A stretch of DNA of 64,000 nt from the NCBI GenBank assembly GCA_034190085.1, contig JAXHTS010000072.1, forward strand, positions 3,010-67,009. Reading direction: 5' to 3'. Shown in pieces: positions 1-61,451 of this stretch. Position 1 is the stretch's first letter, and every line of letters starts with the position of its first letter. The DNA comes from Spirochaetota bacterium. Lineage in GTDB: Bacteria > Spirochaetota > UBA4802 > JAFGDQ01. The notes below the pieces were generated by a model. That model was not told the DNA's origin, searched no databases, and saw only the letters and a list, made by a program, of their open reading frames with translations. Both the position numbers and the translations under genes were made by a program.

Positions 1-2904
1 GGGACGAATACTGCCAACATCAGGCAGGGCATCACGATCGATCTTGCCGTTGGGTGTCAAGGGTAGGTTCTCAATATGGACAAACCTCGAGGGGACCATA
101 AACTCAGGCAAACTCTCCATAATATGCAACCTGAGTTCAGACGTTGACAATTCATCCTCAGACACATAGTAGGCAACTAGACACTTGCCATCCGACCTAT
201 CATCACGATCCACAACAACACAATCTGATATAGCATTATAATTTGATAGTACAGCCTCCACCTCTCCAAGCTCAACCCGATTACCCCTGATCTTTATCTG
301 ATGATCTATTCTACCCAAAAATTCAACATTTCCATCAGGCAACCATCTACCAATATCACCTGTACGATAGATCCTTTCACCCTTGATAAAGGGGTTATTA
401 ACAAAGCATGTTGATGTGATATCAGGCTTATTCAAATACCCTCTGGCTACACCCGGACTGGATATATAGATTTCACCGGCCATGCCTATTGGCATCAAAC
501 GCATCTGTCTATCCAAAATATATATCCTTGTGTTTGCAATAGGCTTGCCAATGGGAACATTGGCGCAATTAGGATCAAGTTTATTGAAACTGTATACAAT
601 ACACCCGACAACGGTCTCAGCTGGTCCATACTCATTATATATTGTTAAATCTGGATTTTTCTTCAGCATTGATTTAGAGATTGCTGCTGAAAGAGCGTCA
701 CCTCCGATTATTAATCGATTTAATCTCGTGAAATTCGTTGGATTGCTATCTGTTAGACGATCTGCAATCTCCAAATGGGATGGAGTCAACTTCGCAATAT
801 CACACCTATCACTGCAGATCACTCGCTCTACTAACGCAACAGGATCAATCTCTCCAGGTTGAATATCTATACTCCCACCAGAAGCAAGAGGCACAAAGAT
901 AGAGGTCACTGTAAGGTCAAAGGAGATAGATGTGAAAAGAGGAAAATTCCCATGGCCTTCAATATCATAATACCGCACTGCCCAGGTGATATAGTTAACC
1001 AGACCTTTATGCTCTATCTCTATCCCCTTTGGCTCTCCCGTGGAACCGGATGTATATACTATATAAGCGAGATTATCGCTTGAATTAACCATATCAGGTG
1101 TGCTCTCTGGCATTCTGGCTATATCATTCCAATCCCTATTCAAACAAAGAATCTCGGCATTACCAAAGGGAATCCTATCCAACAAATCAAAATGCGATAA
1201 TATTATTCCAGCAGAACAATCACTCAGCATATATGAAAGCCTTGACTTGGGATACTCAGGATCCAATGGCACATAAGCGCCCCCTGCCTTTAAAATTCCT
1301 AGTATTCCCACAATCATATCAATAGACCTAAACATCATTAGGCCCACCCTAGCCTCCTCCCTTATGCCCCTTTCCCTCAGATAGTGTGCAAGCCTGTTGG
1401 CCCTCTCATTCAACTCACTATAGGTGACAGCTTCATCTTCGAATATCACCGCAATGGCATCCGGCGTCTTCCCTGCCTGTTCCTCAATTAGCTGGTGTGC
1501 GCATATATCCTCTGGATAGGGACTAGCAGTATCATTAAAGGATACCAGCATCCCTTCCCTCTCCCCCGGGGTGAGTATCGTCAAATCAGAGAGCCTCACT
1601 CCAGGATTATCCAATATTGAAGAGAGAACCTGATGCAGATGTCCTATCATGCGTTGTATTGTATCCCTGTTAAATAAAGCCTTATAGTAGCGCATGCTGA
1701 TTCTAATGCGCGAGCCGGGTATTATGATCAAGACCAGCGGAAAGTTCGTCATCTCAAAGGTATTGATATCCGATATGCTAAATCCAAAATCCTGACTGAC
1801 GTCCAGGGACTCAAGGGGATAATTTTCAAAGACAACTATGCTTTCAAAGAGATTCTGTGATCGCGGAAGGGCGCTACATGCCCTTACATCTGGCAAGAAT
1901 GAGTGCTCAAACTCCCGAATGGAAAGGGAGAGTCTCTGGATGTAGTGAAGTAGATCATGTATGGTCATATCCTGGTTTAGCCGAATCCTGAGAGGAAGGG
2001 TGTTTATGAAAAGGCCCAACATTTCATCAGAGCCATTGAGTTCCGCAGGCCTTCCAGAAGAGGTTGCGCCAAAGACGACCTCATCCCGATTACTATAATA
2101 TGATAGAAGAATCGCCCAAACAGCCTGTAGGAGGGTATTCTGCGTAACATGCTCAACCCTTGTCAGCCCCAGCGCCTTGGCTGTCATCTCTTCGGATAAT
2201 TCCAGTTCCTCTTCAGCAATATCTGTTATTAGTGATTGATTCAATCTCCTATCAACCGGCAGGGGTGTTACTGTATCAAGGTCGCCCAAATGATTCTTCC
2301 AGAAAGAAAAAACAGCATCCCTCCCCTGATTTTGCAGCCATTCGATATAATCCTTATATGGTCGTCGCATGGGTCTTGGCAGTGGTTTCCCAGATTTCTG
2401 TGATATATAGGCATCAAAGAGATCCCTCAACACAATGGGCAGACACCAACCATCAATAATGATGTGATTATGACTCCATACAAAGTGATGTCTTTCATTT
2501 CCCAGCATGAATAGATTCAATCTGATGAGAGGGCCATTCTCCATATCAAAGGGCATTACCCTGTCCTTTTGAAGAAAATCCTCTATCCTCTGCCCCTGCT
2601 CAAGTGAGTCACAATCAACTATGTCATGCACATCAATCCCTATTGGAAAAGATTTTAGTACAATCTGTAGGGGTTCTTTTAGATTCGCCCACTTGAACAC
2701 TGTTCTGAATACAGGCGTAATCGATATTATATGATTCCAAGCCCTTTTGAATGCCTCGATATCCAGAGGGCCATTGATTGTAAAGGCTAGTTGCTGAAAA
2801 TATACAGGAGTACTATCATCATAGAGAGAATGAAAGAGTATCCCCTTCTGCGTCGGTGATAATGGATAAATATCCTGTGTATTTTCCTTAGTAACAAAAG
2901 GCAT
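1..2904 (-). CDS. Non-ribosomal peptide synthetase, third module (C-A...). The 3' part is cut by the left window edge; predicted Asn-activating.
   Basis: The minus-strand frame is open from ATG (2904-2902) to base 1; the ORF track omits it because no stop lies in the window. My translation starts MPFVTKENTQDIYPLSPTQKGILFHS. It contains HNHIIIDGW (C-domain His motif, 2449-2472), AYIVYTSGSTGEPKG (A3, ~1024-1070), NEYGPAE, YRTGD, GRIDHQIKIRG and NGKIDR (A10, ~34-51). GGAGGG lies 6 nt upstream of the ATG, 18 nt after the stop of the preceding NRPS gene. The manually extracted specificity code DLTKIGEVGK is one residue from the classical Asn code DLTKLGEVGK. Confidence 0.9.
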   Translation of the reverse strand, partial: MPFVTKENTQDIYPLSPTQKGILFHSLYDDSTPVYFQQLAFTINGPLDIEAFKRAWNHIISITPVFRTVFKWANLKEPLQIVLKSFPIGIDVHDIVDCDSLEQGQRIEDFLQKDRVMPFDMENGPLIRLNLFMLGNERHHFVWSHNHIIIDGWCLPIVLRDLFDAYISQKSGKPLPRPMRRPYKDYIEWLQNQGRDAVFSFWKNHLGDLDTVTPLPVDRRLNQSLITDIAEEELELSEEMTAKALGLTRVEHVTQNTLLQAVWAILLSYYSNRDEVVFGATSSGRPAELNGSDEMLGLFINTLPLRIRLNQDMTIHDLLHYIQRLSLSIREFEHSFLPDVRACSALPRSQNLFESIVVFENYPLESLDVSQDFGFSISDINTFEMTNFPLVLIIIPGSRIRISMRYYKALFNRDTIQRMIGHLHQVLSSILDNPGVRLSDLTILTPGEREGMLVSFNDTASPYPEDICAHQLIEEQAGKTPDAIAVIFEDEAVTYSELNERANRLAHYLRERGIREEARVGLMMFRSIDMIVGILGILKAGGAYVPLDPEYPKSRLSYMLSDCSAGIILSHFDLLDRIPFGNAEILCLNRDWNDIARMPESTPDMVNSSDNLAYIVYTSGSTGEPKGIEIEHKGLVNYITWAVRYYDIEGHGNFPLFTSISFDLTVTSIFVPLASGGSIDIQPGEIDPVALVERVICSDRCDIAKLTPSHLEIADRLTDSNPTNFTRLNRLIIGGDALSAAISKSMLKKNPDLTIYNEYGPAETVVGCIVYSFNKLDPNCANVPIGKPIANTRIYILDRQMRLMPIGMAGEIYISSPGVARGYLNKPDITSTCFVNNPFIKGERIYRTGDIGRWLPDGNVEFLGRIDHQIKIRGNRVELGEVEAVLSNYNAISDCVVVDRDDRSDGKCLVAYYVSEDELSTSELRLHIMESLPEFMVPSRFVHIENLPLTPNGKIDRDALPDVGSIRP

Positions 2905-2922
2905 CAATTCCCTCCACTGACT

Positions 2923-5900
2923 CTACTCATAGAGACTATCCAGTTCCTCCTGATTAAGATTTGCTAAACTAAAATCCGAAGGGGTTATATCGAAACTCTC
3001 AGGAGAAAGGCAATGAGCAATAACAGCTGACAACTCATCTCTGAAAGCTACTGCAATATTCTCTATTGTTTCTCTCTTATGCTTATTGGCGCTATACAAT
3101 ATGTTTATACTGAGAAGGGAATCCTTCACTATGCATATCACATCTATGAGATTAGGCCTCATATTCTCTGAATCGATAATCCCCGGCACATCCGTTCTTG
3201 CCAACTCAAAGGATCCATCAATCCCCTCAATCGTCACCTGACCAAGGTAATTAAAGCTGATACCGGTATTTAAGGGAAGGTCAAAATCCTTTATGTACTT
3301 TAGAATACAATAGTTGAATCCCCTATGAGGAATAGAACGAAGCTTCTCCTTAACATACTTGATCCGCTCTGCAATATCTGTATTCATTTCCGCATGCAGG
3401 GCAACAGGAAATATTGTGGTGAACCACCCCACTGTCCGAGATAAATCAATCCCATCCATCACATCCTCGCGCCCATGACCCTCAAGATCGATCACTATAT
3501 CATCCCTGCCCATCCATTCCGACAGAGCCTTCATCAATGCTGCCAGTAAAAGATCATTCACTTCAGTATTATAGGCCCTGTGAGCATCCCTCAGGAGATT
3601 CGATGTATTCTCCACTCCGATTTCGATCATCACAACATCTGCTGATTCCATATCATTCTTTCCCAAATCATGATCAATGGGTATATCGGTTATCACATCC
3701 GCTAATTCATCCCTCCAGAAGGATATCTCATCCGTAGCATCAAGCTGAAGAACATGCTCCTTTAAACGAATCGCCCATTCCCTATAGGAAGTAGTCTTCT
3801 TAGGCAATATGGGTGCTCCTCCATTAATAGCCCCATCGTAAAGGGCGAAAAGATCCTCCAGCAATATCCTCCAAGAAACGCCATCCACCACAAGATGATG
3901 AACGGCTAATAATAGATAATTATCTCCGTCCCTTCTATATAATCCAATCCCGAAAATCGGGCCATCTGATATATCAAAGGAGGTTTGAAGAGTGCTCACC
4001 TCTTTCAGTAGTTCATCTTCATCTGCCACGTCTTTCACTACGAAATATATCACCTCTCCCAGGGGCATGTTATCCTGCATTCCATTGGGGAAACGCATCC
4101 TCAAGGCATCATGATGATTTAGCAAGGCCTGGGCGCTATTCCTGAATGCAACCTCATCTATATTAATAGTAGTCTTGAACAATAAGGCTTGATTGAAATG
4201 ATCCACATTCTTAAGTTCCAAGCCAAATAACCACCTCTGAATCGGAGTAAGGGGAGCCTCTCCCACAACAACCCCCTGTTCATCATCAACTGCAACAGAT
4301 CGCTTTGCTACAGAGGCAAGCTGATTGATGTTCTGATGCTCAAATATATCCCTTGGGCGTATTTCATATCCTCGCTTCCTAAGCCTACCCGCTACCTGCA
4401 GGCTGATAATCGAATCTGCTCCAATATCAAAAAAATTCTCATATATACCAATCCTCTCCATATTCAGGACTTCCATCCACACCTCAGCCAGCAGACTCTC
4501 CAACTCATTCTGAGGCTCAACATAGTCGGCACACTTCCCCTGCACCGCCATATCAATCTCAGGTAAAGTGCTCCTATCCACCTTGCCGCTACGATTTAAC
4601 GGCAATGCCTCTAACCGAATAAATCTCAAGGGTATCATGTAATCCGGAAGGGAATTACCCAAAAATCTCCTTAAATCAGCTATAGGAATATCCTTATCCG
4701 AAACATAATAGGCAATCAAATATCTGCTGGCAGATTTGTCCTCCCTATCCACCACCACACAATCATTCACTCCAGAATGAGAACGGAGTATATGCTCCAC
4801 CTCGCCCAACTCTACCCTATAACCCCGCACCTTTACCTGATAATCAATACGCCCCAAAAACTCGATCCCTCCATTAGGAAGCCACTGTCCCATGTCCCCA
4901 GTCTTGAATAGCTTGCCTGTATCACAGAAGGGATTGGCTATAAACCGTTCATTGGTCAAATCCGGATTCTCTAAATAACCCATTGCCAAACCATCGCCGC
5001 CTATATACAATTCCCCAGGCACCCCAATGGGAAGCGGCATCATGTTTCTATCAAGGATATAAACTTGAGTATTCGCAATAGGAGAGCCTATGGGTATATT
5101 ACTACAGCCGCGACAAGCATCAATATCTACTAAAAATGAGGTTGAATCTACACTGCACTCAGTTACCCCATAAACATTGGTCCAAAGAACTGAATCGCCA
5201 TATGTCCCAGCTTGAAACCTTTCAACCATATCCACAGATAAAGGCTCTCCGCCAATGATTATATGCTTTAACCGAAGTTCCTTCCTATTCATAATATCAG
5301 CGGATATCATCAACTCCCATAAGGAGGGAGTTCCATCAATAATCTCTATTTCATATTCCAATATATAGGGGATCAATGTTTCCATATCCCTCTTCATGTA
5401 TCCGGGAATGGGATATAGGGCATGTCCCAGGAGTAGACTCGCGAATATCTGCTGAACTGATGCATCAAAGCTGAATGATGCCAACTGCGCTATACGCAAG
5501 GATGAATAGTAGCTCGAATATATCCTGTCATTAAGCGCATGGACAAGATTAACTACACCTCGATTAGGTATAGGAATACCCTTAGGTTTTCCTGTAGAAC
5601 CTGAAGTGTATATGATATATGCAATATCATCAGCGTTGGCAATATGACGCGGATTTTCGATACTGAATTCGCTGATAGCATCCCAATCCCTATTTAAGGA
5701 CACAATCTTTATCCCATCAGGGATGATATTGGGAAACTCATCCATACAGATCACAGCATCTGCCCCGCTCTCCTCAATCATATATTTGATCCTAGCCTCC
5801 GGCAAATCAGGATCAATCGGCAGGTATGGGCTTCCAGCCTTTAGAATACCAACTATAGCTACAATGCTATCAATGGGTGTTGTAACCATCATGCCAACCG

Positions 5901-7443
5901 GTGATTTAGTCTCTTCCCCTCGGGATATCAGATAATGTGCTAACATGTTTGCGCGAGTATTTAACTCATCAAAGGTTAAAACATCATCCTCAAACACTAC
6001 CGCATTTTGAGATCCAAATTTCTCAAGATTAGATTCAAACTCTTCGATCAATGTCCTCTCCCGAGGATATTCCAGTGAAGTGGCATTAAAATCCCTGAGT
6101 ATCATTTTCTTCTCTTCAGGACTGAGAATCTCAAGATGTGATACCAGAAGCGAATCATCCCTAATCATTCCCAAAAGGATATTATTCAAATGATTCAGCA
6201 TCCCCTCTAGGTTCTCTTCATCAAAGAATTCCTCCACATATGCTAAAGATACCTCCATCTCAGTCTTGGGTAATACAAGCAGCACAATATCAAAATTTGT
6301 TCTATTTAGGGCCTTAATATCAGATAAACTAAAATCATCATCTGTGGTAAGTGAAAAAGTATCTATTGGATAATTTTCAAAGACGACTATGCTGTCAAAG
6401 ATGTCGCACTGCTGAGGTAATGAGCTAGAAGCCTTTATATCTGGAAGGAAAGAGTAGGCATACTCCTGCATCTTCAAGGATTGTTTCTGAATAGCTTGAA
6501 GAAAATGGGATACTGTTGAGGATAGATCTGCCCTAACAGGCAGAGTATTGATAAATAGACCGATCATCTCCTCAGAACCAGGAAGATCAGTTGGTCTGCC
6601 ATAAATTGTTGATCCGAAGACCACATCCTCGGTGTTGCTATAACGCCCCAGTAAGATTGCCCAGGCAGACTGAAATAATGTGCTCATCGTAATTCTCTCC
6701 CTACGAGCAAAGGACTCGAGTCGCTGAGTGACATCCTCAGAGAATATGAACACCTTTTCACCTACAGTACGCTTTTTTATTGTCGATTTGTTCTTCCAGG
6801 GAAGGGGTGTGGGCGTATCAAATCCTAGTAAATACTCTCTCCAGAAACGATTGGCCTTCTCCTTATCCTGTGTGGCAAGCCAGGATATATAATTCTTATA
6901 TAAAGGTCTGGATAATCTCGGTGGTTGATCCCCCTTCTTCAAAGCGCGGTATGAGCTTAAAAAGTCCTTCATTACAAGGGTAAGACACCCCCCATCTAGC
7001 AGGATATGATGATAACTCCAAATAAAATAATATTGCCCTAATCCTATCTCAAGCACATTCAGCCGCATGAGCGGCCCCCTTGCCAGATCAAAGGGAATAG
7101 ATCTATCTGATATGATAAATTGGCTTATTCTCTCCTGCTGTGATTCACTATCGAAACCCTTAAGATCATGCACCACAATCTTGATTGGACGCTCCCTCAA
7201 TACGATCTGTACAGGTTTGACCGCGTCCTTCCAGTTAAAGACGGTTCTGAATACAGGGTGCTGATCTATAAGATGATTCCAAGCATCCTCAAGGGTATTC
7301 AGATCAATTGAGCCCTTGATGATACAACAGAACTGCTCAAAGTATGTTGACTCCTCCGGATCGAACAAGGCATGAAACATCATTCCCTGCTGCATAGGCG
7401 ACATGGGATATATATCAGCAATATTCTTCTTTGTTAAATACAA
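2923..7443 (-). CDS. Non-ribosomal peptide synthetase, module 2: C-A-T-E, predicted D-Gln-incorporating, with a COM-type C-terminal docking tail
   Basis: 1506-aa ORF with TTG start and GGGGA 9 nt upstream. C domain: YHHILLDGGC (~6985-7020). A domain: AYIIYTSGSTGKPKG (~5581-5625), YGVTE, FKTGD, GRIDYQVKVRG, SGKVDR. T domain: FFDIGADSI (~4401-4435). E domain: HHLVVDGVSW (~3870-3905), LEGHGRED, FNYLGQ. The manual specificity code DAQDIGVVDK is one residue from the classical Gln code DAQDLGVVDK. The C-terminal ITPSDFSLANLNQEELDSLYE resembles COM donor helices. Confidence 0.93.
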   Translation of the reverse strand: MYLTKKNIADIYPMSPMQQGMMFHALFDPEESTYFEQFCCIIKGSIDLNTLEDAWNHLIDQHPVFRTVFNWKDAVKPVQIVLRERPIKIVVHDLKGFDSESQQERISQFIISDRSIPFDLARGPLMRLNVLEIGLGQYYFIWSYHHILLDGGCLTLVMKDFLSSYRALKKGDQPPRLSRPLYKNYISWLATQDKEKANRFWREYLLGFDTPTPLPWKNKSTIKKRTVGEKVFIFSEDVTQRLESFARRERITMSTLFQSAWAILLGRYSNTEDVVFGSTIYGRPTDLPGSEEMIGLFINTLPVRADLSSTVSHFLQAIQKQSLKMQEYAYSFLPDIKASSSLPQQCDIFDSIVVFENYPIDTFSLTTDDDFSLSDIKALNRTNFDIVLLVLPKTEMEVSLAYVEEFFDEENLEGMLNHLNNILLGMIRDDSLLVSHLEILSPEEKKMILRDFNATSLEYPRERTLIEEFESNLEKFGSQNAVVFEDDVLTFDELNTRANMLAHYLISRGEETKSPVGMMVTTPIDSIVAIVGILKAGSPYLPIDPDLPEARIKYMIEESGADAVICMDEFPNIIPDGIKIVSLNRDWDAISEFSIENPRHIANADDIAYIIYTSGSTGKPKGIPIPNRGVVNLVHALNDRIYSSYYSSLRIAQLASFSFDASVQQIFASLLLGHALYPIPGYMKRDMETLIPYILEYEIEIIDGTPSLWELMISADIMNRKELRLKHIIIGGEPLSVDMVERFQAGTYGDSVLWTNVYGVTECSVDSTSFLVDIDACRGCSNIPIGSPIANTQVYILDRNMMPLPIGVPGELYIGGDGLAMGYLENPDLTNERFIANPFCDTGKLFKTGDMGQWLPNGGIEFLGRIDYQVKVRGYRVELGEVEHILRSHSGVNDCVVVDREDKSASRYLIAYYVSDKDIPIADLRRFLGNSLPDYMIPLRFIRLEALPLNRSGKVDRSTLPEIDMAVQGKCADYVEPQNELESLLAEVWMEVLNMERIGIYENFFDIGADSIISLQVAGRLRKRGYEIRPRDIFEHQNINQLASVAKRSVAVDDEQGVVVGEAPLTPIQRWLFGLELKNVDHFNQALLFKTTINIDEVAFRNSAQALLNHHDALRMRFPNGMQDNMPLGEVIYFVVKDVADEDELLKEVSTLQTSFDISDGPIFGIGLYRRDGDNYLLLAVHHLVVDGVSWRILLEDLFALYDGAINGGAPILPKKTTSYREWAIRLKEHVLQLDATDEISFWRDELADVITDIPIDHDLGKNDMESADVVMIEIGVENTSNLLRDAHRAYNTEVNDLLLAALMKALSEWMGRDDIVIDLEGHGREDVMDGIDLSRTVGWFTTIFPVALHAEMNTDIAERIKYVKEKLRSIPHRGFNYCILKYIKDFDLPLNTGISFNYLGQVTIEGIDGSFELARTDVPGIIDSENMRPNLIDVICIVKDSLLSINILYSANKHKRETIENIAVAFRDELSAVIAHCLSPESFDITPSDFSLANLNQEELDSLYE

Positions 7444-14353: not shown

Positions 14354-14504
14354 ATACTTTCATCCTCCCATTGAATAGGCATAAACCAAGTATTGTCTAA
14401 AACCACTATTTATTTTTGGGGAAATGGCATGTAAAAATACCAATAATAATTTATCAAGCTGACTTTTTTCATTTAATAATATTATATTATTACACTAATA
14501 AAAA

Positions 14505-14533
14505 TTGACTAAGCTTTATCAAGATAGTATATT
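14505..14533 (+). promoter_or_regulatory. Candidate sigma70-like promoter (TTGACT-17 nt-TATATT) in the divergent NRPS/exporter spacer
   Basis: TTGACT lies at 14505-14510 and TATATT at 14528-14533, with exactly 17 nt between them. It sits about 630 nt upstream of the exporter start. Chance matches are expected in DNA this AT-rich. Confidence 0.2.
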
Positions 14534-15163
14534 ATTAAAATAATAAAAAAAAAAACTATCGGCAACAAATAATGTAATTCAATATCTACAATTACTACTT
14601 TGAAACTCTTTCCTGCTTTAATTGAATAATGAAGTATCATGGATCGAACCACAACAATATTAGAAGGGTAAGATAAAGAGACTATTTCAAATAATAATTA
14701 CGGGGAAGTTACATATTAGAAGCCCAGAAAAGTCAAGAAGTATGTTAGGATATATAAATTACCATGAAGATAAAAAATTGATGGGCGGAAGGATCGTTCA
14801 GATGAAGAAAATATGAGAATAATATATTATTATACTTGACTCAAGATAACTGATATATCCTTTCCCTATAGATATGAGGTAGGCAATAATGATCAATTAT
14901 GACTACTGATGATCATCCATAAAAAAACTCGGATATTCTGCTTAGAACATCATACTCATTGACTTTGTTAATTCTATTTCAATCTTTTCTAGTGGCAAAT
15001 TTCACCTTACCTCCTCCATAAATGAAATTGAATTATATCTGTTCACATAAACACTTATCAAATGATGCATTTCTACCTTTTCAACAGAATGCTGGATTAA
15101 ATTTATAATTAAAGAAATAACTCAACAACTACAAAATTCAACTGTTAAGGATAATAATATTAT

Positions 15164-17587: not shown

Positions 17588-18346
17588 TTGAAGATATTCG
17601 CTCTATCAGACATTCACATTGATTATGAAGAAAATCATAAATGGCTCTACAGCCTCTCTGAATATGATTATAAAGATGATATCCTAATTTTAGCCGGTGA
17701 CATTACAGATATTATTCCATCCCTATCAAAAGCCTTTGAGGCGTTGAAACTCAAATTTCACGAAGTAATGTATCTTCCCGGAAATCATGACCTATGGACT
17801 TATAGAAATAATATTAAAAACTCTATAGATAAATTTAACATAATAAAAAAAATTGCCAATGATTACGGCATTAATATGAAACCAGCTAAATTTGATTCAG
17901 TGTCCATTATTCCTCTATACGGCTGGTTTGATTTTTCATTCGGTCAACCATCGAAGGAGTTATTACATATTTGGTTGGATTTCACAGCGTGTAAATGGCC
18001 ATATGATTTTGATGAGACCAAGATTACCCATTATTTTATTTCAATCAATGAAGAATTTTTACAAACTAAAAACGATTTTATTATTACCTATTCCCACTTC
18101 TTGCCTCGAATAGATCTCATGCCCATATACATTCCACCCTCAAAAAGGCTACTCTATCCAGTGCTTGGAACTACACTGCTTGAAGAACAGATAAATGTGT
18201 TGGATTCGCAAATCCATATATATGGACATAGTCATGTTAATATGCATGTCAATAAAGACAACAGGATTTATATCAATAACGCCTTTGGATATCCATCAGA
18301 GACCAGGATAACAGCTAAGGAATTGCTCTGTGTTTTTGAACTATAA
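17588..18346 (+). CDS. Calcineurin-like metallophosphoesterase
   Basis: 252 aa with TTG start and GGGGGA upstream. The ordered signature motifs are LSDIHID (DxH), LAGDIT (GD), PGNHDLW (GNHD/E), SHFLP and YGHSHV (GHxH). Confidence 0.85.
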   Translation: MKIFALSDIHIDYEENHKWLYSLSEYDYKDDILILAGDITDIIPSLSKAFEALKLKFHEVMYLPGNHDLWTYRNNIKNSIDKFNIIKKIANDYGINMKPAKFDSVSIIPLYGWFDFSFGQPSKELLHIWLDFTACKWPYDFDETKITHYFISINEEFLQTKNDFIITYSHFLPRIDLMPIYIPPSKRLLYPVLGTTLLEEQINVLDSQIHIYGHSHVNMHVNKDNRIYINNAFGYPSETRITAKELLCVFEL

Positions 18347-31700: not shown

Positions 31701-34700
31701 TGTTCCAAGAATTTCGAGATACAGGGGTTTTCACTAAAGAGGTAGGTGGTGAATTCAATTGTATCAAACGAGCATGGAAGGATTATGGTATTTCCGATGT
31801 AGATTGGATTAACTATGGATTATTGGTTCCTGAGGATGAGGCTCAATCAATTATTGATTCAGAACCCCTTGTTCATATCATTGTAATCAATGCCCCTGGT
31901 AACATTGTAATTGGTGGTCAAGCAGAGGCCTGCGAGGGTGTTGTGGAGAGGTTAGGACGAGAAAGGGCATACAAATTGGGATACGATGTAGCAGTCCACT
32001 GTTCTGAGATGAAGAAATATGCAGATAAATGGCGCAAATTGCATCATCGCACAACCTTCCCAGTGCCCGATATTCGCTTCTATTCCAGTTCTACATGCAG
32101 TCACTATCAACCAAATGCTGAATTAGCCGCTGATGCGCTTTTGGGGATGGCATCGCAAAGGCTTAATTTTCCTAAAATGGTGGAAAACGCATGGAATGAT
32201 GGGATTAGAATCTTTATTGAACATGGTCCGCGGGATAGCTGTTCAAGGTGGATATCTCAGATACTTGGCAATAGAGAACATGTAACCATACCAATGGATA
32301 GAGCTGAGGTTTCATCAATGACTCAGGTCATTCATGTAATAGCTCAACTAATATGCGCGGGAGTATCCATCAATCATATTGACTTTACTGAGATTTTGAC
32401 CTCATTAAAGGGGAAAGAGAAAACTATGAGTTTAAACACCCTTTCCACCAAGAATCCTCTTAAGACCTATAAGGTTCATCCACCAATTATACAATTCTCT
32501 GAAATCCCTATAGCCGCAGTGCAGGAAGTGAAATCAACAAAAACTCCTGATAATATTGAAACGAGGTTGATTAGAATGCCTAATGATGAGAAAAATGGAA
32601 CTGGGAAGCAAAAGATGTCCCAAGCTCCATGGTTAGCACCCGTATTAGAAGATATCCCAATTAAAACGAGAGGAGACGGTCGGGAAATCATTATTGATAA
32701 TAGCGTTATGCCTGCCAACTCAATTGATCATCAGAGCCTTCCCATTGGGTCAGATTCTCCCATGGGAAATATATTTAATAATATGGTAAAACAAAATGCA
32801 CTTATATCATCCATTCACCGGGACTTTGTGAATCAACAGGCTCTGGTTCATCAACATTTCCTCAAAATGCGCCAAGATGCTTTATCCATCTTAATGAATG
32901 CTTCAAGCCAAGGGTTTGATTTTACAGACAGTACTTTAGTTACAGCTTTGAAACCAGCATTCAATACTCCTCCGACAACCCAGGAACAATATAATGCTGA
33001 ATCTCATGTTACATCAATGGAACCGGATAAAAAAGATACCTTAATGAAATCCCATACTTCAGTAATTGACAAACCTCCAATAATCCCAGATAGGGATTTG
33101 AAGGATTCTTCACTCAATAAGAAGTCGTCCACATATCAATCAGCTATAGCTAGACAGTTCTCAAAACCGGAAGCGAAGAAACCCATAGGCCCAAGGTTCT
33201 CCAGGAAAGAGCTTGAGATACTGGCATCTGGCAAAATTTCAGAAGTTTTTGGCCCACTATTTGAGGTACAGGATCACTATCACCGCCAGGTTCGTCTACC
33301 AAAACCGCCATTGCTATTAACAGACAGGGTCACAGGATTGGATGCTGAAGCAGGATCCATGGGCAAGGGCATAATATGGACAGAAACGGATGTCAAAAAG
33401 GACGCCTGGTACATCAACGATATCTATATGCCAGCGGGGGTCACAGTAGAGGCTGGGCAGAGCGATCTGTTGCTTATCTCATGGCTTGGAGCTGACTTTA
33501 AGAACATGGGTGAGCGGGTCTACCGCCTGTTAGGCTGTGATCTGGTGTACTATGGCTCCCCTCCAAAAGTGGGAGACACACTATGTTATGAAATCTATGT
33601 GGATGGACATGCCAATGTAGGCGATGTTCGCATCTTCTTCTTTCATTATGATTGCAGAATAAACGGGGAGATCCGCCTATCAGTTCGAAACGCCCAGGCA
33701 GGTTTCTTCTCTGATGAAGAGTTGGCTAATTCCGGAGGTGTGCTATGGGAAGCAGAAACTGGGGAACATAAGGATAAAGCGGATGCTCGCGTTGATCCAC
33801 TTATAGTTGACTGCACAAGAAGCAAATTTTCAGTGGATCAGGTTAGGGCATTTTCTCAAGGACGAGTCTATGAATGCTTTGGACCTGGATTTGAGATAGC
33901 AGAGACCCATACAAAGACCCCCAAGCTTCCACCAGGGAGGCTGCTACTGCTCCACCATGTGAGTCAATTCAATCCCAAGGGCGGACCATGGGGAAGGGGA
34001 TATTTGCGATCAGAATATAACATCTCTCCTGATGAATGGTTCTTAACCTGTCATTTCAAGAATGATCCTTGTATGCCAGGGACCTTGATGAGTGATGCCT
34101 GTTTGCAGACCCTTGCCTTTTATGTCACAGCCATGGGCTTTACGCTGAATAAGGATGGCTGGCGCTTTGATCCTGTGCCTGACGAGATATATCACATCAT
34201 CTGTCGTGGGCAGGTAACACCCAAGAGTAATACTATAATCTATGAGACATTTGTTGAAGAGGTTATTGATAGCCCCTATCCTACTGTATACGCTGACATC
34301 CTTGCTACATGTGATGGCCTTAAGATATTGCATATACGCCGCTTGGGTATACGTCTTGTACCGGATTGGCCACTTAATTGTTGGCCCGAACTTATAGAAA
34401 ATCATGAGGAGACAAGACCTGTAGCCAGTGTTGGCGATTTCCGTTTTGATTATAAATCACTGCTTGCCTGCGCATGGGGCAGACCCTCTGATGCTTTTGG
34501 AGAGAATGGAAAAGCGTTCGACGGACCGCGCCACATCGCTAGACTGCCTGGACCGCCCTATCACTTTATGTCACGGATTTCCAAGCTAGAGGCTGAAATG
34601 GGAAGCATGAAATCTGGTGAATCCATTGAGGTTGAGTATGATGTACCAACTGACGCGTGGTATTTTGACATGAATGGAAATCCTACAATGCCCTTCTGTG

Positions 34701-36775
34701 TTTTGATGGAGGTGGCAATGCAGCCATGCGGATGGCTGGCTGTATTCGAGGGCTGTCCAGCCAGCACAGAAAATGACCTCTATTTTAGAAACATCGATGG
34801 TACAGGCAGAATAACCGCTGAAATACTTCCAAACACAGAGACAATACGCACCCGCACCACGCTAACCAGCATATCCCGCATGTCGAATCTAATTCTGGTT
34901 AACTTTGATGTGATATGTTTTGTTGAAGAGACGCCAGTTTATAATATGAAAACAAGATTCGGATTCTTTCCCAAGGAGGCCCTGGATCAACAGATTGGAT
35001 TGCCATCCACAGAAGATGAGAAGGGATGGCTTGAGGAATCCTGCGATTTTCTTGTTGATCTTACAGAATTGCCGGATCGCTACTTTAATGGCAAATTACG
35101 TCTACCGAGGCCGATGCTGCTTATGCTTGACCGCATTACAGGCTACTGGCCTAAGGGTGGAGGGAACGGACTCAGACGCTTGAGGGCTGAAAAGGATGTA
35201 AATGTTAGCGAATGGTTCTTCAAGGCACACTTCATGTCCGATCCGATACAGCCGGGCTCCCTTGGAGTCGAGTCAATGGTGCAATTATTGCAGTTTTACA
35301 TGTTACATGAGCACATGGAGGAAGGTATTGAACACCCACGCTTTGAGCCCCTTGCCCTTAACAGACCAACCACCTGGAAGTACAGGGGGCAGGTGACGCC
35401 AAACAAGAAACGCATCTCTGTTGAGATGAATATCCTTGAGCGTGGCAGAGATGAGGCTGGGGCCTATTCCGTGGCCGAGGCATGGTTATGGGTAGATGAG
35501 CTAAGAATATTCCATGTTAAGGATTTAGGCATGCGCATCGTCTCAGGAAATCCACCGACAAAAGCTGAAGGCGGCACAAGGCATAATAAAAAAAATAATT
35601 CCAATAATATAGAGAATATGATAAAGGAAGCCGTAGCGGATAAAGCTAATGTTAATCCATCAACTGTCAGGTTTATAGAGAATAGGAACGTAGCCCTTTG
35701 TGAAGCCATGCCACTTACTCTATATCCAGTTGAGATGAAAGACAAAAAGAACAAAGCCCCATTAGTGAAGTTAGGGGAGCCCTTCCTCGACTTTGATAGA
35801 ATGCTGTCCTATGGACGTAAAATATGGGGATTGGGGCAATGGATTGGAGAAAAAATTACCCAAGGACTCTGCGAACAGTTTACTCGGTTTTTAATCTTGG
35901 AGGATCCAGCGATATTGAAGAGCATTCATGGAAGAAGCGTTTTATACCTTGCCAATCATCAGGTTCAGGTTGAATCGATGCTATTCCCAATGATGATGCA
36001 GGTGCTGACAGAGAAACGAGTAATGCCAATCGCAAACTCTGATCATCAAAATGGCTGGATCGGCATGCTGAATGAGTTCACCTATTCCTATCCTGGTGTA
36101 ACCTATCCAAGAAATATAGTCTTCTTTGATCAGAACGATAGGAGATCAATGTTTGACATAATTGAGGGTTTTAAGGCAATGATTGATAGGGAGGGAATAT
36201 CTGTTTTTCTCCATGTGGAAGGGAAATTAGGATTAAGCTGCCGCAACCCTGTTAAGATATTAAGTTCTGTCTTTATTGACATGGCCATCAGCTCAAACCT
36301 CCCCATTGTGCCAATTCGTTTCATTGGAGGACTCCCAGTAGAGGAGATGGGAATCCCTTTGGACTTCCCAGTTGGTTACTGCAAACAGGATTATTACATT
36401 GGAAGTCCGATCTTTCCTGAAGAGCTGAATGCTATGCCCTATGCTGAACGCAGAAAATATGTTATCAAATCCATCAATAATCTGGGACATCCAAACAAGA
36501 CTGAAAAACCCAATCCACCGAATACTCGTTTCAAAAAGGAAGTAGAGGCATGGATGGCTAAAACAGGATCAACAGAGATAAAGGCAGTGCTCTTTAAGGT
36601 ACTGGAGGGTCTCACTGACACAACAGATAAGGAAACCCAGGCGTTGATTAATGCTATCCGTGAGGGCAAACTGTTGATAAAGAATAATGAGAAGGGCAAA
36701 TGGATTTCAGATCTTGCTCAATGGCTTATTGAACCCAGGAAGCTAAAAATAGCTTATAGTGATGGAGAACATTAA
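28709..36775 (+). CDS. pfaC: PfaC-like PKS/FAS: KS-CLF-AT-(FabA-type DH)2 with a C-terminal 1-acylglycerol-3-phosphate acyltransferase (AGPAT/LPLAT) domain
   Basis: 2688 aa. KS: LDAACASS (~29283-29305), CHATGT, GHPITVSG. The second KS-like domain lacks the active Cys (FTISSEEISG), so it is a CLF. AT: GFSSGESN (~31638-31655). Two FabA-like hot-dog DHs carry TCHFKNDPCMPGTL (~34048-34085) and KAHFMSDPIQPGSL (~35221-35260). The acyltransferase motifs are ANHQVQVES, LHVEGKLG and LPIVPIRF. This matches the Pfa3 architecture described for myxobacterial PUFA synthases. Confidence 0.92.
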   Translation: MYFEPIAIIGQSCVLPGALNPQELWDILAKGQDVLAKVPDGYWRTDTELVFAQSYKDSEDRTWTDRGGYVRDFDSVFDPEGFAISKDEILLFDPLVHWIFHTGREALKDSGYPSASNIKAGAIFGNLSYPSHSLTQFAESVWLDAQANNFIGGKSRQIAGIDRPHPLNRFMSGLPAHMLARALELKAGAFALDAACASSLYAIKLACDKLHDREADLMLAGGVNRADDLIIHIGFCALQAMSHSGESRPFHRKADGLVPAEGAGFIVLKRLDDAIASDDTILGVIRGIGLSNDGRGHGLLVPSEEGQFRAIRQAYDISGLSPEDISLIECHATGTPIGDGVEIRSIMRAFEGLKQIPIGSIKSNMGHPITVSGIAGILKILGALKHGIRPPTLHVEEPLEIINDSPFRLLTEPEPWDSENPRRAVVNNFGFGGNNAHIIIEEWDKTLNNKPKKRKRTPKTNNEEIAIVGIGVMAADLIGAENFAQALFTGESRLRKHDGDDPSGFTESYQLPMMGLRFPPADLEQTLPQQLLVLKSTFEAITDVESLPVERTGALIGMGCDGEVARSSACWRLPQWVDSWKGSIQFSDVEDWISRARDHINPFRKAPSIVGAMPNIVANRLCSQFDLRGPSFTISSEEISGMRCLEIAVRALRANELDAAIVGAVDVCCEPVHKGAAKDVLNAECHTPGDASVILILKRLTDARENSDKIYAIISDKADNPTLRLGLEEDSMSLIPLFGHAHAASGLLHVAASALACYYKILPTGKAKLSLPWLTPQQPRSAEISVNALGGERSIIRLKEDIDSPSGHFVLSQFPRLHIYSGNTSEDVLHSLINGEESEDGPARLVITASDNDELIELQKKAQILLEKGEFSRDPIILDKGIYYSDNPIGGEIAFVFTGSAGVYPGMGRELMLAFPELVDEICTGFTLEEVLDLTSDISTDMQKSPERMLWSSTLLSQIHAKITQQYLGIIPDAVIGFSSGESNSLFATGAWRDLSKMFQEFRDTGVFTKEVGGEFNCIKRAWKDYGISDVDWINYGLLVPEDEAQSIIDSEPLVHIIVINAPGNIVIGGQAEACEGVVERLGRERAYKLGYDVAVHCSEMKKYADKWRKLHHRTTFPVPDIRFYSSSTCSHYQPNAELAADALLGMASQRLNFPKMVENAWNDGIRIFIEHGPRDSCSRWISQILGNREHVTIPMDRAEVSSMTQVIHVIAQLICAGVSINHIDFTEILTSLKGKEKTMSLNTLSTKNPLKTYKVHPPIIQFSEIPIAAVQEVKSTKTPDNIETRLIRMPNDEKNGTGKQKMSQAPWLAPVLEDIPIKTRGDGREIIIDNSVMPANSIDHQSLPIGSDSPMGNIFNNMVKQNALISSIHRDFVNQQALVHQHFLKMRQDALSILMNASSQGFDFTDSTLVTALKPAFNTPPTTQEQYNAESHVTSMEPDKKDTLMKSHTSVIDKPPIIPDRDLKDSSLNKKSSTYQSAIARQFSKPEAKKPIGPRFSRKELEILASGKISEVFGPLFEVQDHYHRQVRLPKPPLLLTDRVTGLDAEAGSMGKGIIWTETDVKKDAWYINDIYMPAGVTVEAGQSDLLLISWLGADFKNMGERVYRLLGCDLVYYGSPPKVGDTLCYEIYVDGHANVGDVRIFFFHYDCRINGEIRLSVRNAQAGFFSDEELANSGGVLWEAETGEHKDKADARVDPLIVDCTRSKFSVDQVRAFSQGRVYECFGPGFEIAETHTKTPKLPPGRLLLLHHVSQFNPKGGPWGRGYLRSEYNISPDEWFLTCHFKNDPCMPGTLMSDACLQTLAFYVTAMGFTLNKDGWRFDPVPDEIYHIICRGQVTPKSNTIIYETFVEEVIDSPYPTVYADILATCDGLKILHIRRLGIRLVPDWPLNCWPELIENHEETRPVASVGDFRFDYKSLLACAWGRPSDAFGENGKAFDGPRHIARLPGPPYHFMSRISKLEAEMGSMKSGESIEVEYDVPTDAWYFDMNGNPTMPFCVLMEVAMQPCGWLAVFEGCPASTENDLYFRNIDGTGRITAEILPNTETIRTRTTLTSISRMSNLILVNFDVICFVEETPVYNMKTRFGFFPKEALDQQIGLPSTEDEKGWLEESCDFLVDLTELPDRYFNGKLRLPRPMLLMLDRITGYWPKGGGNGLRRLRAEKDVNVSEWFFKAHFMSDPIQPGSLGVESMVQLLQFYMLHEHMEEGIEHPRFEPLALNRPTTWKYRGQVTPNKKRISVEMNILERGRDEAGAYSVAEAWLWVDELRIFHVKDLGMRIVSGNPPTKAEGGTRHNKKNNSNNIENMIKEAVADKANVNPSTVRFIENRNVALCEAMPLTLYPVEMKDKKNKAPLVKLGEPFLDFDRMLSYGRKIWGLGQWIGEKITQGLCEQFTRFLILEDPAILKSIHGRSVLYLANHQVQVESMLFPMMMQVLTEKRVMPIANSDHQNGWIGMLNEFTYSYPGVTYPRNIVFFDQNDRRSMFDIIEGFKAMIDREGISVFLHVEGKLGLSCRNPVKILSSVFIDMAISSNLPIVPIRFIGGLPVEEMGIPLDFPVGYCKQDYYIGSPIFPEELNAMPYAERRKYVIKSINNLGHPNKTEKPNPPNTRFKKEVEAWMAKTGSTEIKAVLFKVLEGLTDTTDKETQALINAIREGKLLIKNNEKGKWISDLAQWLIEPRKLKIAYSDGEH
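35830..36480 (+). other. AGPAT/LPLAT-type acyltransferase domain fused to the PfaC-like protein (approximate bounds)
   Basis: Motif I reads NHQVQVE (His codon 35957-35959, Glu codon 35972-35974), so it is H(X)4E rather than the canonical H(X)4D. The motif III-like VEGKLG lies at ~36209-36232. The motif IV-like LPIVPIRF lies at ~36298-36321. Confidence 0.7.
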
Positions 36776-36838
36776 ATCTATCTTAATCATTAAAGATCTG
36801 TGGAATGTGAGAGGTAATTTAAATCCAAGGAGGACAAA

Positions 36839-38215
36839 ATGGAAATAAATCAATTGCTTGGCATTGGGAAAGCCGCCTTAAAGAGCTACAGATACTCGAG
36901 ACGTGCATGGAAGAGCCCTGAATCATTGAAGAGACTGCAAGACAATGCATTGCAACGAGCCGTGTCAATAGCATATCACCATACTGATTTTTATTTGGAA
37001 AAATATAATAAATATGGAATTCATCCTTCAGAGATAAAGACAATAGAGGATTTACCGAAGCTACCGATTATTACAAAACAGGAGTTAATAGATTACTTCA
37101 ATGCCGCTGTTCCAAGATCATTAAACAAGAACAAGGCCTTTCTCATGGGGACCTCCGGTTCCACGGGTCAGCCGCTACAGGTTTATAAGGATTACACATG
37201 GCTGGCACATTCCCTTGGTTTTGGTTTACGGATGTTGAAACTGCACAGAATGGGTCTTCCTAAAGCAGCGTTCATATTCGATATAAACTCTATGTCCAGC
37301 ATTGAGAATAAGACAAAAAATTTCTATAAATACTTTACCAAAAGGGCTATGCTAATTCCAGTGGAACTGGATGTAGTGGAGATCATGGAACGCCTGGAAA
37401 AGGCAAATGTGCACTACATCGCCACCTATACAGGCGTTATGAGAGAACTGGCTACCCTAAGAAAAAATGGTATGGGCAAAAAGCTAAAATTAAAAAAGGT
37501 TGGCCTCACTGGAGAGCTTCTGGATGAATACACCCGAGAATATATTGAGGATGCATTTGATTGTTATTGCTATAGCTCATATATTTCCACAGAAGGGGGA
37601 ACAATTGCAATAGAGTGTGAAAACAAAAAGATGCATATAAATTCAGACTATGTGATGGTGGAAGTCGTGGATCAAAACGGCACACCCTTACCTGCTGGTG
37701 AAGATGGCAGCATCCTCCTAACCTGTTATGACGGAGGATATGGAACACCTATCATAAGATATAGTGGATGCTCAGATGTAGGTCAACTCCTTCCGGATAA
37801 ATGCGACTGTGGCTTGAATACACCCATTATGGGGCCAATAAAGGGACGATCCGTTGACTCAATTCATCTGCCTGACGGTAGAGTATACCATGCATTTTCA
37901 ATGACCATACCAATGGAGAAGATACAACGAGAATATAGCAATGAACGTATTCGCCAATACCAGATCGTTCAACACGAACTCAATAAGATAACAATTAGCC
38001 TAATTCGCAATGAAGAAAAGAACAAGGAGGGTGATTCCCTTTCTGACCTTATGGAAATCATCCAAAGAGCCTATCAGGATCAACTCGGCTCTGAAATGGA
38101 CTTGAAGGTTCAGGAGGTTCAGGAATTAACCAAAATTGAAAATGTTGGGATGCCAACCCCTCTTGTATTATCTCAGATTGGCAAGAAAGAGAAACAGGGG
38201 ATAAAGGAATTATAA
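36839..38215 (+). CDS. PaaK / coenzyme-F390-synthetase-like adenylate-forming enzyme (acyl-CoA or acyl-AMP ligase)
   Basis: 458 aa with a strong AAGGAGGA RBS 7 nt upstream, 63 nt after the pfaC-like stop. The P-loop-like motif MGTSGSTGQPLQVY comes after an ~100-aa N-terminal region, and the short overall length fits the family. Together these are characteristic of the PaaK/CapK/F390-synthetase branch of ANL enzymes. Confidence 0.7.
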   Translation: MEINQLLGIGKAALKSYRYSRRAWKSPESLKRLQDNALQRAVSIAYHHTDFYLEKYNKYGIHPSEIKTIEDLPKLPIITKQELIDYFNAAVPRSLNKNKAFLMGTSGSTGQPLQVYKDYTWLAHSLGFGLRMLKLHRMGLPKAAFIFDINSMSSIENKTKNFYKYFTKRAMLIPVELDVVEIMERLEKANVHYIATYTGVMRELATLRKNGMGKKLKLKKVGLTGELLDEYTREYIEDAFDCYCYSSYISTEGGTIAIECENKKMHINSDYVMVEVVDQNGTPLPAGEDGSILLTCYDGGYGTPIIRYSGCSDVGQLLPDKCDCGLNTPIMGPIKGRSVDSIHLPDGRVYHAFSMTIPMEKIQREYSNERIRQYQIVQHELNKITISLIRNEEKNKEGDSLSDLMEIIQRAYQDQLGSEMDLKVQEVQELTKIENVGMPTPLVLSQIGKKEKQGIKEL

Positions 38216-61445: not shown

Positions 61446-61451
61446 ATTCTC

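Follow-up and report, generated by a model that had tools for sequence, protein, structure and literature searches.

Positions 1-38215 of the window (the 64,000-nucleotide stretch of Spirochaetota contig JAXHTS010000072.1 that was analysed), together with at least about 6 kb to its left, probably make up a single biosynthetic gene cluster that belongs to a conserved, undescribed family, in which the acyl chain made by a Pfa synthase would be handed to a FAAL-headed NRPS and end up in a lipid-peptide. We put the probability of this reading at roughly 0.6. No cultured or characterised member of this pfa-FAAL-NRPS family is known. The features are listed in the Table.

Table. Features of the cluster, with positions in the window.
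Feature	Position	Strand	Remarks
nrpsC, N-terminal 974 aa	1..2922	-	C-A in window; Stachelhaus code DLTKIGEVGK (Asn-like)
nrpsB	2923..7443	-	C-A-T-E (Pfam, E-domain motifs); Stachelhaus code DAQDIGVVDK (Gln-like)
nrpsA, 2293 aa	7472..14353	-	FAAL-like ligase-ACP-C-A-T-E; Stachelhaus code DALFLGGTFK (Val-like)
Insertion in FAAL-like domain, ~85 aa (aa 241-325), N-terminal subdomain	13379..13633	-	gap vs 6ULX
AT-rich intergenic region between divergent nrpsA and MMPL genes	14354..15163	.	27% GC
MMPL/HAE3-type RND transporter	15164..17497	+	
Calcineurin-like metallophosphoesterase	17588..18346	+	
Sfp-type PPTase	18388..19125	-	
AT-rich intergenic region upstream of pfaD, 1.18 kb	19126..20308	.	25% GC
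pfaD / Pfa1 enoyl reductase	20309..21934	+	TIGR02814, 628 bits
pfaA / Pfa2	21962..28681	+	KS-AT-3xACP-KR-DH
pfaC / Pfa3	28709..36775	+	KS (Cys196)-CLF-AT-FabA DH (His1782)-FabA DH (His2174)-AGPAT
AGPAT/PlsC-fold acyltransferase domain of pfaC	35711..36775	+	NHQVQVES (HX4E), HVEG, PIVPIRF motifs
PaaK-like / DVU_1553-like adenylate-forming ligase	36839..38215	+	cluster membership uncertain

The gene content described in the initial annotation was confirmed, every gene being present at its stated position and with strong domain scores: a minus-strand NRPS line, a plus-strand pfaD-pfaA-pfaC-like operon ending in a PaaK-like ligase and, between them, an MMPL exporter, a metallophosphoesterase and a PPTase, of which no second copy was found in the window. 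The two lines had been called physically fused, which they are not, being divergent and 5.9 kb apart. The junction running from the NRPS through the MMPL, phosphoesterase and PPTase genes to pfaD and pfaA was reproduced by an independent assembly (Logan contig SRR24907504_2036), so the adjacency of the two blocks is not an assembly chimera. As had been noted, the NRPS continues past the left edge: in the same Logan contig nrpsC has a full length of 1514 aa with the organisation C-A-T-E, and is followed by a fourth NRPS gene. The terminal 'Condensation' matches of the NRPS proteins are true epimerisation domains with canonical E motifs, their best PDB matches being the E domains of PvdL, BacC, GrsA and TycA. 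The nrps and pfa megasynthase genes of the window have a GC content of about 44%.

The initial annotation had proposed to examine whether the pfa and NRPS blocks occur together in relatives, and this comparison favours a functional link. The sample of co-occurrences comprises two complete cases (the window and metagenome contig L176) and one partial case (L136). L176, which stems from a different, unrelated organism (50.6% GC versus about 44% in the same genes of the window), carries on one strand a single co-directional operon of the order pfaA-pfaC-[FAAL-ACP-C-A-T-E]-[C-A-T-E]-[C-A-T-E]-[C-A-T-R]. In this operon, the end of pfaC and the beginning of the NRPS overlap by 8 nt, a sign that the genes are co-transcribed and translationally coupled. 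Identities to the corresponding proteins of the window are 68.5% for pfaA, 64% for pfaC over its full length, AGPAT domain included, and 65%, 62%, 61% and 60% for the four NRPS genes, and the Stachelhaus codes are identical in all three comparable A domains. The pfa-NRPS linkage is thus conserved across two organisms, as six orthologues are adjacent in L176 and the A-domain codes are the same. Since the two blocks are collinear in the L176 operon but divergent in the window, with three genes inserted between them, this linkage has outlasted rearrangement. On one strand, the partial case L136 encodes a counterpart of the pfaC tail (a FabA-DH-AGPAT protein, 54-58% identity), an MMPL protein (41% identity to that of the window) whose gene lies between those for AGPAT and FAAL, and a FAAL-ACP of the insertion type that continues into an alpha-oxoamine synthase (AONS; 52%). 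It thereby pairs the AGPAT type and FAAL subtype of the window around a different downstream chemistry.

These loci bear directly on the possibility that the two blocks are independent neighbours, the second of the readings offered in the initial annotation. According to this reading, which we regard as rather unlikely, a Type L Pfa synthase with its AGPAT domain would place PUFA in membrane phospholipid, as proposed for myxobacteria, while the FAAL-NRPS line would make a lipopeptide from ordinary fatty acids, the linkage being due to co-regulation or to a common genomic island rather than to common chemistry. In other organisms, pfa clusters of Type L are indeed self-contained (PMC4882568, PMC6731297), and FAALs usually use the general fatty-acid pool (PMC11837247). 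In the Type L cluster on a plasmid of Azospirillum lipoferum 4B neither FAAL nor NRPS was found within 20 kb, no NRPS lies upstream of pfaD in three relatives, and in Spirochaetae HGW-1 (L177), where an NRPS also starts with this FAAL subtype, the 10 kb upstream of that NRPS contain no pfa genes. The divergent orientation and the spacing of the blocks in the window also fit independence. Such a reading does not, however, account well for six orthologous genes that stay adjacent at a different GC content with the pfaC stop overlapping the NRPS start, nor for the second pairing, in L136, of this AGPAT type with this FAAL subtype. Both loci favour a single pathway to a D-amino-acid-rich lipopeptide, the other reading of the initial annotation, over mere neighbourhood; its further element, capture of the Pfa product by the FAAL, is one that we infer.

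The ligase at the head of nrpsA is a putative fatty-acid activator, judged from its sequence. In NCBIfam it is matched best by fatty acyl-AMP ligases (among them FadD28, FadD21, FadD32 and MbtM), all with scores below the curated cut-offs, and its best PDB matches are StsA, a keto-acid A domain, and McyG, ranked above true FAALs. For these two reasons its substrate class is assigned only tentatively. The insertion of about 85 aa is absent from StsA (6ULX) in the alignment, and the ranges of the matches to solved FAALs suggest that it is absent there as well; it is retained in the proteins P0293-P0298, P0300 and P0325 and marks a small subfamily. FadD32, which serves Pks13, and other mycobacterial FAALs re-activate the product of one fatty-acid synthase and load it onto a carrier domain of the next megasynthase. 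The matches of the window FAAL include FadD32, FadD28 and FadD23, the acceptor being an NRPS rather than a PKS as in the FadD32-Pks13 pair.

The pfa block follows the order of the Type L Pfa1/Pfa2/Pfa3 synthases of Aetherobacter, Minicystis and Sorangium, namely ER, then KS-AT-ACPn-KR-DH, then KS-CLF-AT-DH-DH-AGPAT (PMC4882568, PMC6731297). The AGPAT ending, which had been considered unusual, is therefore standard for this architecture. With Pfa1/PfaD proteins of myxobacteria, PfaD shares 59-61% identity, the value for a Pfa1 construct of myxobacterial origin being 59%. Differences from the myxobacterial systems are the three tandem ACPs of pfaA (ACP-coding DNA repeat at 25488-26288), the low-GC, non-myxobacterial, uncultured host, and the linkage to a FAAL-primed NRPS, an MMPL transporter and a PaaK-like ligase. 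Although the AGPAT domain reaches 18.8 bits in Pfam (PF01553), below the cut-off of 23, its identity was confirmed by AGPAT-annotated homologues, conserved motifs and the predicted fold (best PDB match PlsC, 5KYM). The AGPAT domain already offers an exit route to phospholipid, a point that, like the lack of a thioesterase, counts against the favoured reading.

A further alternative, which appears quite unlikely to us, also assumes one pathway but makes the AGPAT-like domain (HX4E) its coupling enzyme: the Pfa-built chain on the PfaA ACPs would be transferred not to lysophosphatidate but to the reduced lipopeptide, at one of its hydroxyls or amines. A second acyl chain, of the ordinary kind, would come from the FAAL, giving a two-tailed peptidolipid able to serve as a membrane lipid. 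For L136, the amino alcohol from the FAAL-ACP-AONS protein would act as acceptor. In the L136 ORFs scanned, no carrier domain other than the FAAL-fused ACP was found; there the DH-AGPAT gene lies two genes upstream of FAAL-ACP, with a lipid-kinase-like gene downstream, which suggests that the AGPAT acts on products of the FAAL line. Reductive release would yield a free hydroxyl acceptor, and in glycopeptidolipid synthesis the acyltransferase PapA3 has been proposed to move a Pks-bound acyl chain to the peptide (PMC1885439). No thioesterase to free the Pfa product for the FAAL is present, which is in line with this alternative and with that of independent systems alike. The motif NHQxxxES does replace the canonical HX4D throughout the clade, but HX4E is common to homologues annotated as ordinary AGPAT and, by extension, presumably to stand-alone Type L synthases lacking an NRPS, and so is not specific to the hybrids. 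The PlsC fold match would fit a normal lysophosphatidate acceptor equally well, and the acceptor proposed in this alternative is hypothetical.

Of the genes between the two lines, the PPTase belongs to the pfa unit: its orthologue in a relative (L089/L090; 59% identity) is the immediate upstream neighbour of pfaD, and no NRPS lies within 10 kb upstream of pfaD there. The MMPL gene recurs in L136, but its closest relatives (53-58% identity) are found in TetR-DUF1302-MMPL operons without a nearby megasynthase; neither a periplasmic adaptor nor an outer-membrane partner is encoded nearby. Homologues of the metallophosphoesterase and of the PaaK-like ligase were not found in the retrieved parts of related loci, and no such ligase follows pfaC in L176 or in L095, where a CoA-transferase gene lies downstream of pfaC. 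A promoter scan of the region between nrpsA and the MMPL gene gave sites no commoner than in shuffled sequence.

In the favoured single pathway, the Type L synthase, activated by the adjacent PPTase, would produce a long, probably unsaturated acyl chain. The FAAL-like ligase would adenylate this product as the free fatty acid and load it onto its own fused ACP, whereupon the first C domain would join the acyl group to residue 1. The three C-A-T-E modules are predicted to incorporate D-configured Val-like, Gln and Asn residues, and the fourth module, seen complete only in L176 (C-A-T-R), would add the last residue and release the product reductively; we infer that the window organism also has this terminal reductase. 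The product would most likely be an N-acyl tripeptidyl (D-D-D) amino alcohol or aldehyde, a peptidolipid. Moving such an amphiphilic product into the envelope, or across it, is most likely the task of the MMPL/HAE3 transporter.

A comparable logic is found in the mycobacterial glycopeptidolipid core (mps1/mps2, pks, fadD23, papA3, mmpL4a/4b), where a lipid megasynthase, a FAAL and a four-module NRPS yield an acyl-D-aa-D-aa-D-aa-amino alcohol, with MMPL transporters (PMC1885439). The likeness is functional only: the window has a Pfa complex in place of the Mas-like Pks, its FAAL is fused to the NRPS, it lacks PapA3, glycosyltransferase, methyltransferase and Gap genes, and the predicted residues are Val-like/Gln/Asn instead of Phe/allo-Thr/Ala. 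Known NRPS/PUFA-synthase hybrids, systematically charted in 2026 (PMC13291983), likewise co-encode a pfa-like synthase and an NRPS in conserved co-localisation and are presumed to make one lipid-peptide conjugate. The window cluster, in contrast, has neither a modular PKS nor aminotransferase/thioester-reductase lipid tailoring, its pfaC keeps the AGPAT domain, and its NRPS is headed by a FAAL-ACP fusion and, in L176, closes with a reductase; FAAL and AGPAT are nowhere mentioned in the main text of that survey (PMC13291983). While the concept of NRPS/PUFA-synthase hybrids is itself already known, the cluster is set apart from those described earlier by the combination of a FAAL-primed NRPS with an AGPAT-bearing pfaC.

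Every gene that the initial annotation had listed for the cluster (positions 1-38215) was found when an ORF map was combined with Pfam and NCBIfam scans. Moreover, the arrangement from the NRPS genes through the MMPL, phosphoesterase and PPTase genes and pfaD into pfaA is the same in an independent assembly, Logan contig SRR24907504_2036 (28.4 kb). In nrpsA, a PP-binding domain (aa 706-767) is followed by a condensation domain (aa 791-1239), so that a FAAL-like domain leads to an ACP and then to a C domain, whose closest relatives are LCL-type C domains and not the starter C domain of surfactin. The C-terminal matches to the Condensation family are epimerisation (E) domains, as the E motifs PIQxWF, HHxxxDG, EGHGRE-like, RTVGWFT and FNYLGQ are present and, in the PDB, they come closest to the E domains found in PvdL, bacitracin synthase 3, GrsA and TycA. 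The Logan contig runs 2.9 kb past the window edge and completes the third NRPS gene as C-A-T-E (1514 aa), followed by a fourth gene, covered for its first 420 aa, which opens with a C domain. The NRPS of the window organism contains three E domains. Of the two loci, only L176, a metagenome contig of a different organism (JGI 3300027852, Ga0209345_10000708), shows a terminal reductase, in its orthologue of the fourth gene. The ten-residue specificity codes of the three A domains are DALFLGGTFK, DAQDIGVVDK and DLTKIGEVGK, which we take, going by published codes, to be Val-like, Gln and Asn; these amino-acid assignments are putative.

Features of the cluster, its surroundings and the related locus L136
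Locus	Feature	Position	Strand	Remarks
Window	Third NRPS gene (nrpsC)	1-2922	-	C-A; open frame past left edge
Window	nrpsB	2923-7443	-	C-A-PP-C (Pfam)
Window	nrpsA	7472-14353	-	2293 aa; AMP-binding-PP-Condensation-AMP-binding-PP-Condensation (Pfam)
Window	Insertion in FAAL-like domain	13379-13633	-	~85 aa; aa 241-325 of nrpsA
Window	MMPL/HAE3-type RND protein	15164-17497		
Window	Calcineurin-like phosphoesterase	17588-18346		
Window	Sfp-type PPTase	18388-19125	-	
Window	pfaD (ER)	20309-21934	+	TIGR02814, 628 bits
Window	pfaA	21962-28681	+	KS-AT-ACP x3-KR-DH
Window	Tandem DNA repeat	25488-26288		285 bp, 2.8 copies, 92% matches; codes for three near-identical pfaA ACPs
Window	pfaC	28709-36775	+	KS (Cys196), CLF, AT, two FabA-type DH (His1782, His2174), C-terminal AGPAT
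Window	AGPAT domain, pfaC tail	35711-36775	+	
Window	PaaK-like ligase		+	After pfaC
Window	ORF, 361 aa	38273-39358	-	Right border of cluster; no Pfam/NCBIfam match
Window	Long-chain acyl-CoA synthetase	43344-45059	+	
Window	FadH-like 2,4-dienoyl-CoA reductase	56757-58679	-	Oxidored_FMN + Pyr_redox_2
Window	Chemotaxis operon	58961-63992	-	CheB, CheR between two CheD paralogues, CheW, C-terminal part of CheA
L136	Operon-like region	3714-17169	+	Contains the genes below
L136	Gene 1, FabA-DH-AGPAT protein		+	54-58% identity to pfaC tail
L136	Gene 2, MMPL		+	41% identity
L136	Gene 3, small ORF		+	194 aa
L136	Gene 4, insertion-type FAAL-ACP fused to serine-palmitoyltransferase-like oxoamine synthase		+	52% identity
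L136	Genes 5 on		+	UbiA-type prenyltransferase, DAG-kinase-like, AIR-synthase-like, methyltransferase

For the loading domain of nrpsA, NCBIfam ranks FAAL models first, all with scores below the curated cut-offs, and in the PDB ranking the FAALs come after StsA, an A domain for keto acids, and McyG; the substrate is probably of the fatty-acid class. In the N-terminal subdomain, some 85 aa are inserted after the P-loop region and before the NWMPYSH motif. The alignment with StsA 6ULX shows no such insertion there, and match ranges alone suggest that the other solved relatives lack it as well. As an exhaustive HMMER search with FAAL-ACP as the query showed, the insertion is common to a small subfamily; these few homologues come from Spirochaetota, Thermodesulfobacteriota and unclassified MAGs and conserve D-x-R-P, ILDT and SG-x-K within the insertion, which may serve in docking or as a membrane element. 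Three of the homologues (P0293, P0294 and P0297) and the NRPS of L177, a locus of Spirochaetae HGW-1, have two tandem FAAL-like domains before a single ACP, with the insertion in the second only.

The pfa block belongs to a described type, which is also defined by its products, long-chain PUFA that end up in phospholipid. In Type L synthases, pfaD (ER) lies 5' of pfaA, which is followed by a fused pfaBC-type gene (PMC3098273, PMC4882568), and the series ER / KS-AT-ACPn-KR-DH / KS-CLF-AT-DH-DH-AGPAT is that of the myxobacterial Pfa1/Pfa2/Pfa3 system (PMC3098273, PMC4882568, PMC6731297). The window block has the same gene order, all on the + strand, and the same Pfa2 and Pfa3 domain architectures, and its PfaD shares 59% identity with a myxobacterial Pfa1 construct and 60-61% with the PfaD of Pendulispora. 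The AGPAT-terminated synthase, which the initial annotation had regarded as unusual, is therefore of a known kind, since its gene and domain order is exactly that of Type L. The AGPAT identity itself required additional evidence: against Pfam Acyltransferase (PF01553) the pfaC tail reaches 18.8 bits with a cut-off of 23, and because this score alone was insufficient, homologues and a fold search were added. Homologues of the tail (31-43% identity) have a PF01553 match and go by the name 1-acyl-sn-glycerol-3-phosphate acyltransferase, an alignment of 18 tail sequences conserves the blocks N-H-Q-x-x-x-E-S, H-x-E-G and P-(I/V)-(V/I)-P-(V/I), and the AlphaFold model of the tail (pLDDT 86) has Thermotoga PlsC (5KYM, E = 2e-6) as its sole strong PDB match, followed by GPAT1. 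Homologues, motifs and fold together settle the assignment. Motif I reads NHQxxxES (HX4E) rather than the canonical NHxxxxD (HX4D) in 18 of the 18 aligned clade members, including database-annotated AGPATs.

The linkage of the pfa and NRPS blocks was followed in related loci, where the early synteny anchors, MMPL and pfaD, spoke against it. No NRPS was found upstream of pfaD in three pfaD relatives (67-72% identity); the 10-kb flanks end before the far side of pfaC, so that an NRPS placed downstream as in L176 is compatible with these loci. On an Azospirillum plasmid, a Type L cluster stands alone, with no NRPS downstream, and the same holds for a metagenomic pfaC tail; in the plasmid searches this cluster was the only pfa yield and no close FAAL relative was found. 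By contrast, the NRPS side gave the decisive evidence, since the exhaustive HMMER search led to P0296, a protein of L176 with the same FAAL-ACP-C-A-T-E architecture as nrpsA and 67% identity across FAAL-ACP. On one strand of L176 follow pfaA (2181 aa), pfaC (2714 aa), P0296, two C-A-T-E genes (1513 and 1518 aa) and a C-A-T-reductase gene (1451 aa), the pfaC stop overlapping the NRPS start as ATGTCTGA. The identities to the window are 68.5% for pfaA, 64% for pfaC (over the full length, NHQVQVES included) and 65%, 62%, 61% and 60% for the four NRPS genes. The GC content is 50.6% in L176 as compared to 43-45% in the same genes of the window, which shows that two different organisms are involved. 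Nonetheless, the A-domain codes are identical in all three comparable domains, and their identity in two diverged organisms indicates that the product is under selection.

Accordingly, of the blocks whose co-occurrence the initial annotation had proposed to check by synteny, the pfa and NRPS blocks do recur together, as six orthologues in one operon of L176, whereas neither the phosphoesterase nor the PaaK-like ligase turned up in what was retrieved of the related loci and the MMPL recurs only in L136. This third metagenome locus sits on a 237-kb contig, and its MMPL is identical to an NCBI protein from a 'Proteobacteria bacterium' MAG. A scan of metagenome contigs with a single FAAL-ACP protein gave no matches, and the alignment from the exhaustive HMMER search was needed to recover it. 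Its operon-like region looks like a sphingolipid-like pathway with the same AGPAT and FAAL subtypes. Taken over the window, L176 and L136, the same AGPAT type and FAAL subtype are thus linked three times, with two downstream chemistries. L177 (HGW-Spirochaetae-1) is a counter-example: within 10 kb upstream of its tandem FAAL-FAAL-ACP NRPS (10001-18670), no pfa genes were found. Its upstream side has, on the other strand, five hypothetical genes that are all of similar length (362-417 aa) and lack a Pfam match.

In the middle block, the closest relatives of the MMPL (53-58% identity; loci L083 and L087) end a conserved TetR-DUF1302-hypothetical (~560-610 aa)-MMPL operon, and no megasynthases were found in these operons. 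The window MMPL has lost the TetR, DUF1302 and hypothetical partners and is preceded by an 810-bp stretch of 27% GC. Within 10 kb of 80 genome MMPL loci (identity up to 46%), the pfaA KS-AT query gave two weak matches (35% identity) and the FAAL and NRPS queries gave three (25-29% identity); no other pfa or NRPS genes were found there. Given the neighbourhoods of its relatives, the MMPL was rejected as a conserved partner at that identity level, although L136 does carry one. The PPTase is part of the pfa unit: in a relative whose pfaD shares 67% identity, the gene just before pfaD codes for a PPTase of 59% identity, and no NRPS was found in the 10 kb upstream. A promoter and terminator scan of positions 14300-20400 did not exceed the shuffled expectation, and neither block is clearly of foreign origin by per-gene GC and GC3.

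To the right of 38.2 kb lie housekeeping and chemotaxis genes (FtsH, TilS, acyl-CoA synthetase, PGM, PhoH, AspRS and a che operon). The FadH-like reductase and the acyl-CoA synthetase, 5-19 kb off the cluster, could act on unsaturated fatty acids; no evidence was found that links them to it. All window proteins that were looked up, FtsH and PhoH included, are singletons at 90% identity in a collection of 15 billion proteins, which implies that no close relative of the source organism has been sequenced. Named relatives of single window genes come from Spirochaetota, Thermodesulfobacteriota/Desulfobacterales and 'Proteobacteria' MAGs.

Hybrids between NRPSs and PUFA-synthase-like enzymes are known, with zeamine, fabclavine, megapolipeptin and chitinimine as examples, and a 2026 survey that required a PKS for inclusion lists over 60 such clusters (PMC13291983). 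Hybrids of this kind are defined by pfa-like, NRPS and PKS genes within 20 kb of one another, whereas the window has pfa and NRPS genes and, like L176, no modular PKS. FAAL and AGPAT are never mentioned in the main text of that survey (PMC13291983), and PUFA synthases go unmentioned in FAAL reviews. The cluster lacks the tailoring of the zeamine-type hybrids but matches them in its conserved synteny. The mycobacterial glycopeptidolipid core follows the same logic, with a Pks where the PUFA-type synthase stands here, and its NRPS has four modules with three E domains and a terminal reductase; the window organism likewise has three E domains, and a reductase is seen in L176 only. None of the glycopeptidolipid genes for the Mas-like type I Pks, PapA3, glycosyltransferases or Gap is present in the window. 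The cluster can be placed in no characterised family, apart from its pfa block, a Type L Pfa synthase.

The best-supported reading is that of one cluster and one pathway. The initial annotation had weighed a single pathway against a co-regulated pair; the linkage in L176 and L136 favours the former, while the AGPAT feature proved ordinary and for the phosphoesterase and PaaK-like ligase no counterpart was found in those parts of the other loci that were retrieved. In such a pathway the Pfa complex would make a long acyl chain, the FAAL-like domain would load a fatty acid, probably this Pfa product, onto the NRPS ACP, and three E-bearing modules plus a terminal reductase module, presumably present in the window organism as well, would yield an N-acyl D-D-D tripeptidyl amino alcohol or aldehyde, which the MMPL would most likely export. 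No thioesterase is present for the hand-over from Pfa to FAAL, and the AGPAT domain is a competing exit. It is improbable, in our estimation, that the AGPAT-like (HX4E) domain instead uses the polyunsaturated Pfa chain to esterify the N-acyl D-peptide alcohol after its reductive release and that the MMPL inserts the resulting two-tailed peptidolipid, a new class of envelope lipid, into the outer leaflet; a two-tailed lipid formed by passing the Pfa chain to what the FAAL line makes does fit L136 well. If it were true, the product would be a non-mycobacterial counterpart of the glycopeptidolipids made with a PUFA synthase, and L136 would lead to a sphingolipid-like relative via the same AGPAT/FAAL pair.

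PUFA-type synthases have long been seen as makers of membrane fatty acids, and their supply of lipid tails to specialised metabolites was recognised only recently. The charted hybrids all contain PKS modules, whereas the window locus and L176 represent a simpler, conserved pairing of a Type L synthase that retains its AGPAT exit domain with a D-rich tetrapeptide line that is headed by a FAAL-like domain and presumably ends in reductive release. The cluster represents a conserved, uncharacterised lipid-peptide family of uncultured lineages that is conceptually close to recently published work. If the single-pathway reading holds, the hybrid landscape would reach uncultured anaerobe-type lineages (the named relatives are Spirochaetota and Thermodesulfobacteriota MAGs), the acceptor of the Pfa3 AGPAT domain would become testable, and the FAAL would be a natural bridge from a PUFA synthase to an NRPS that could be used for engineering.
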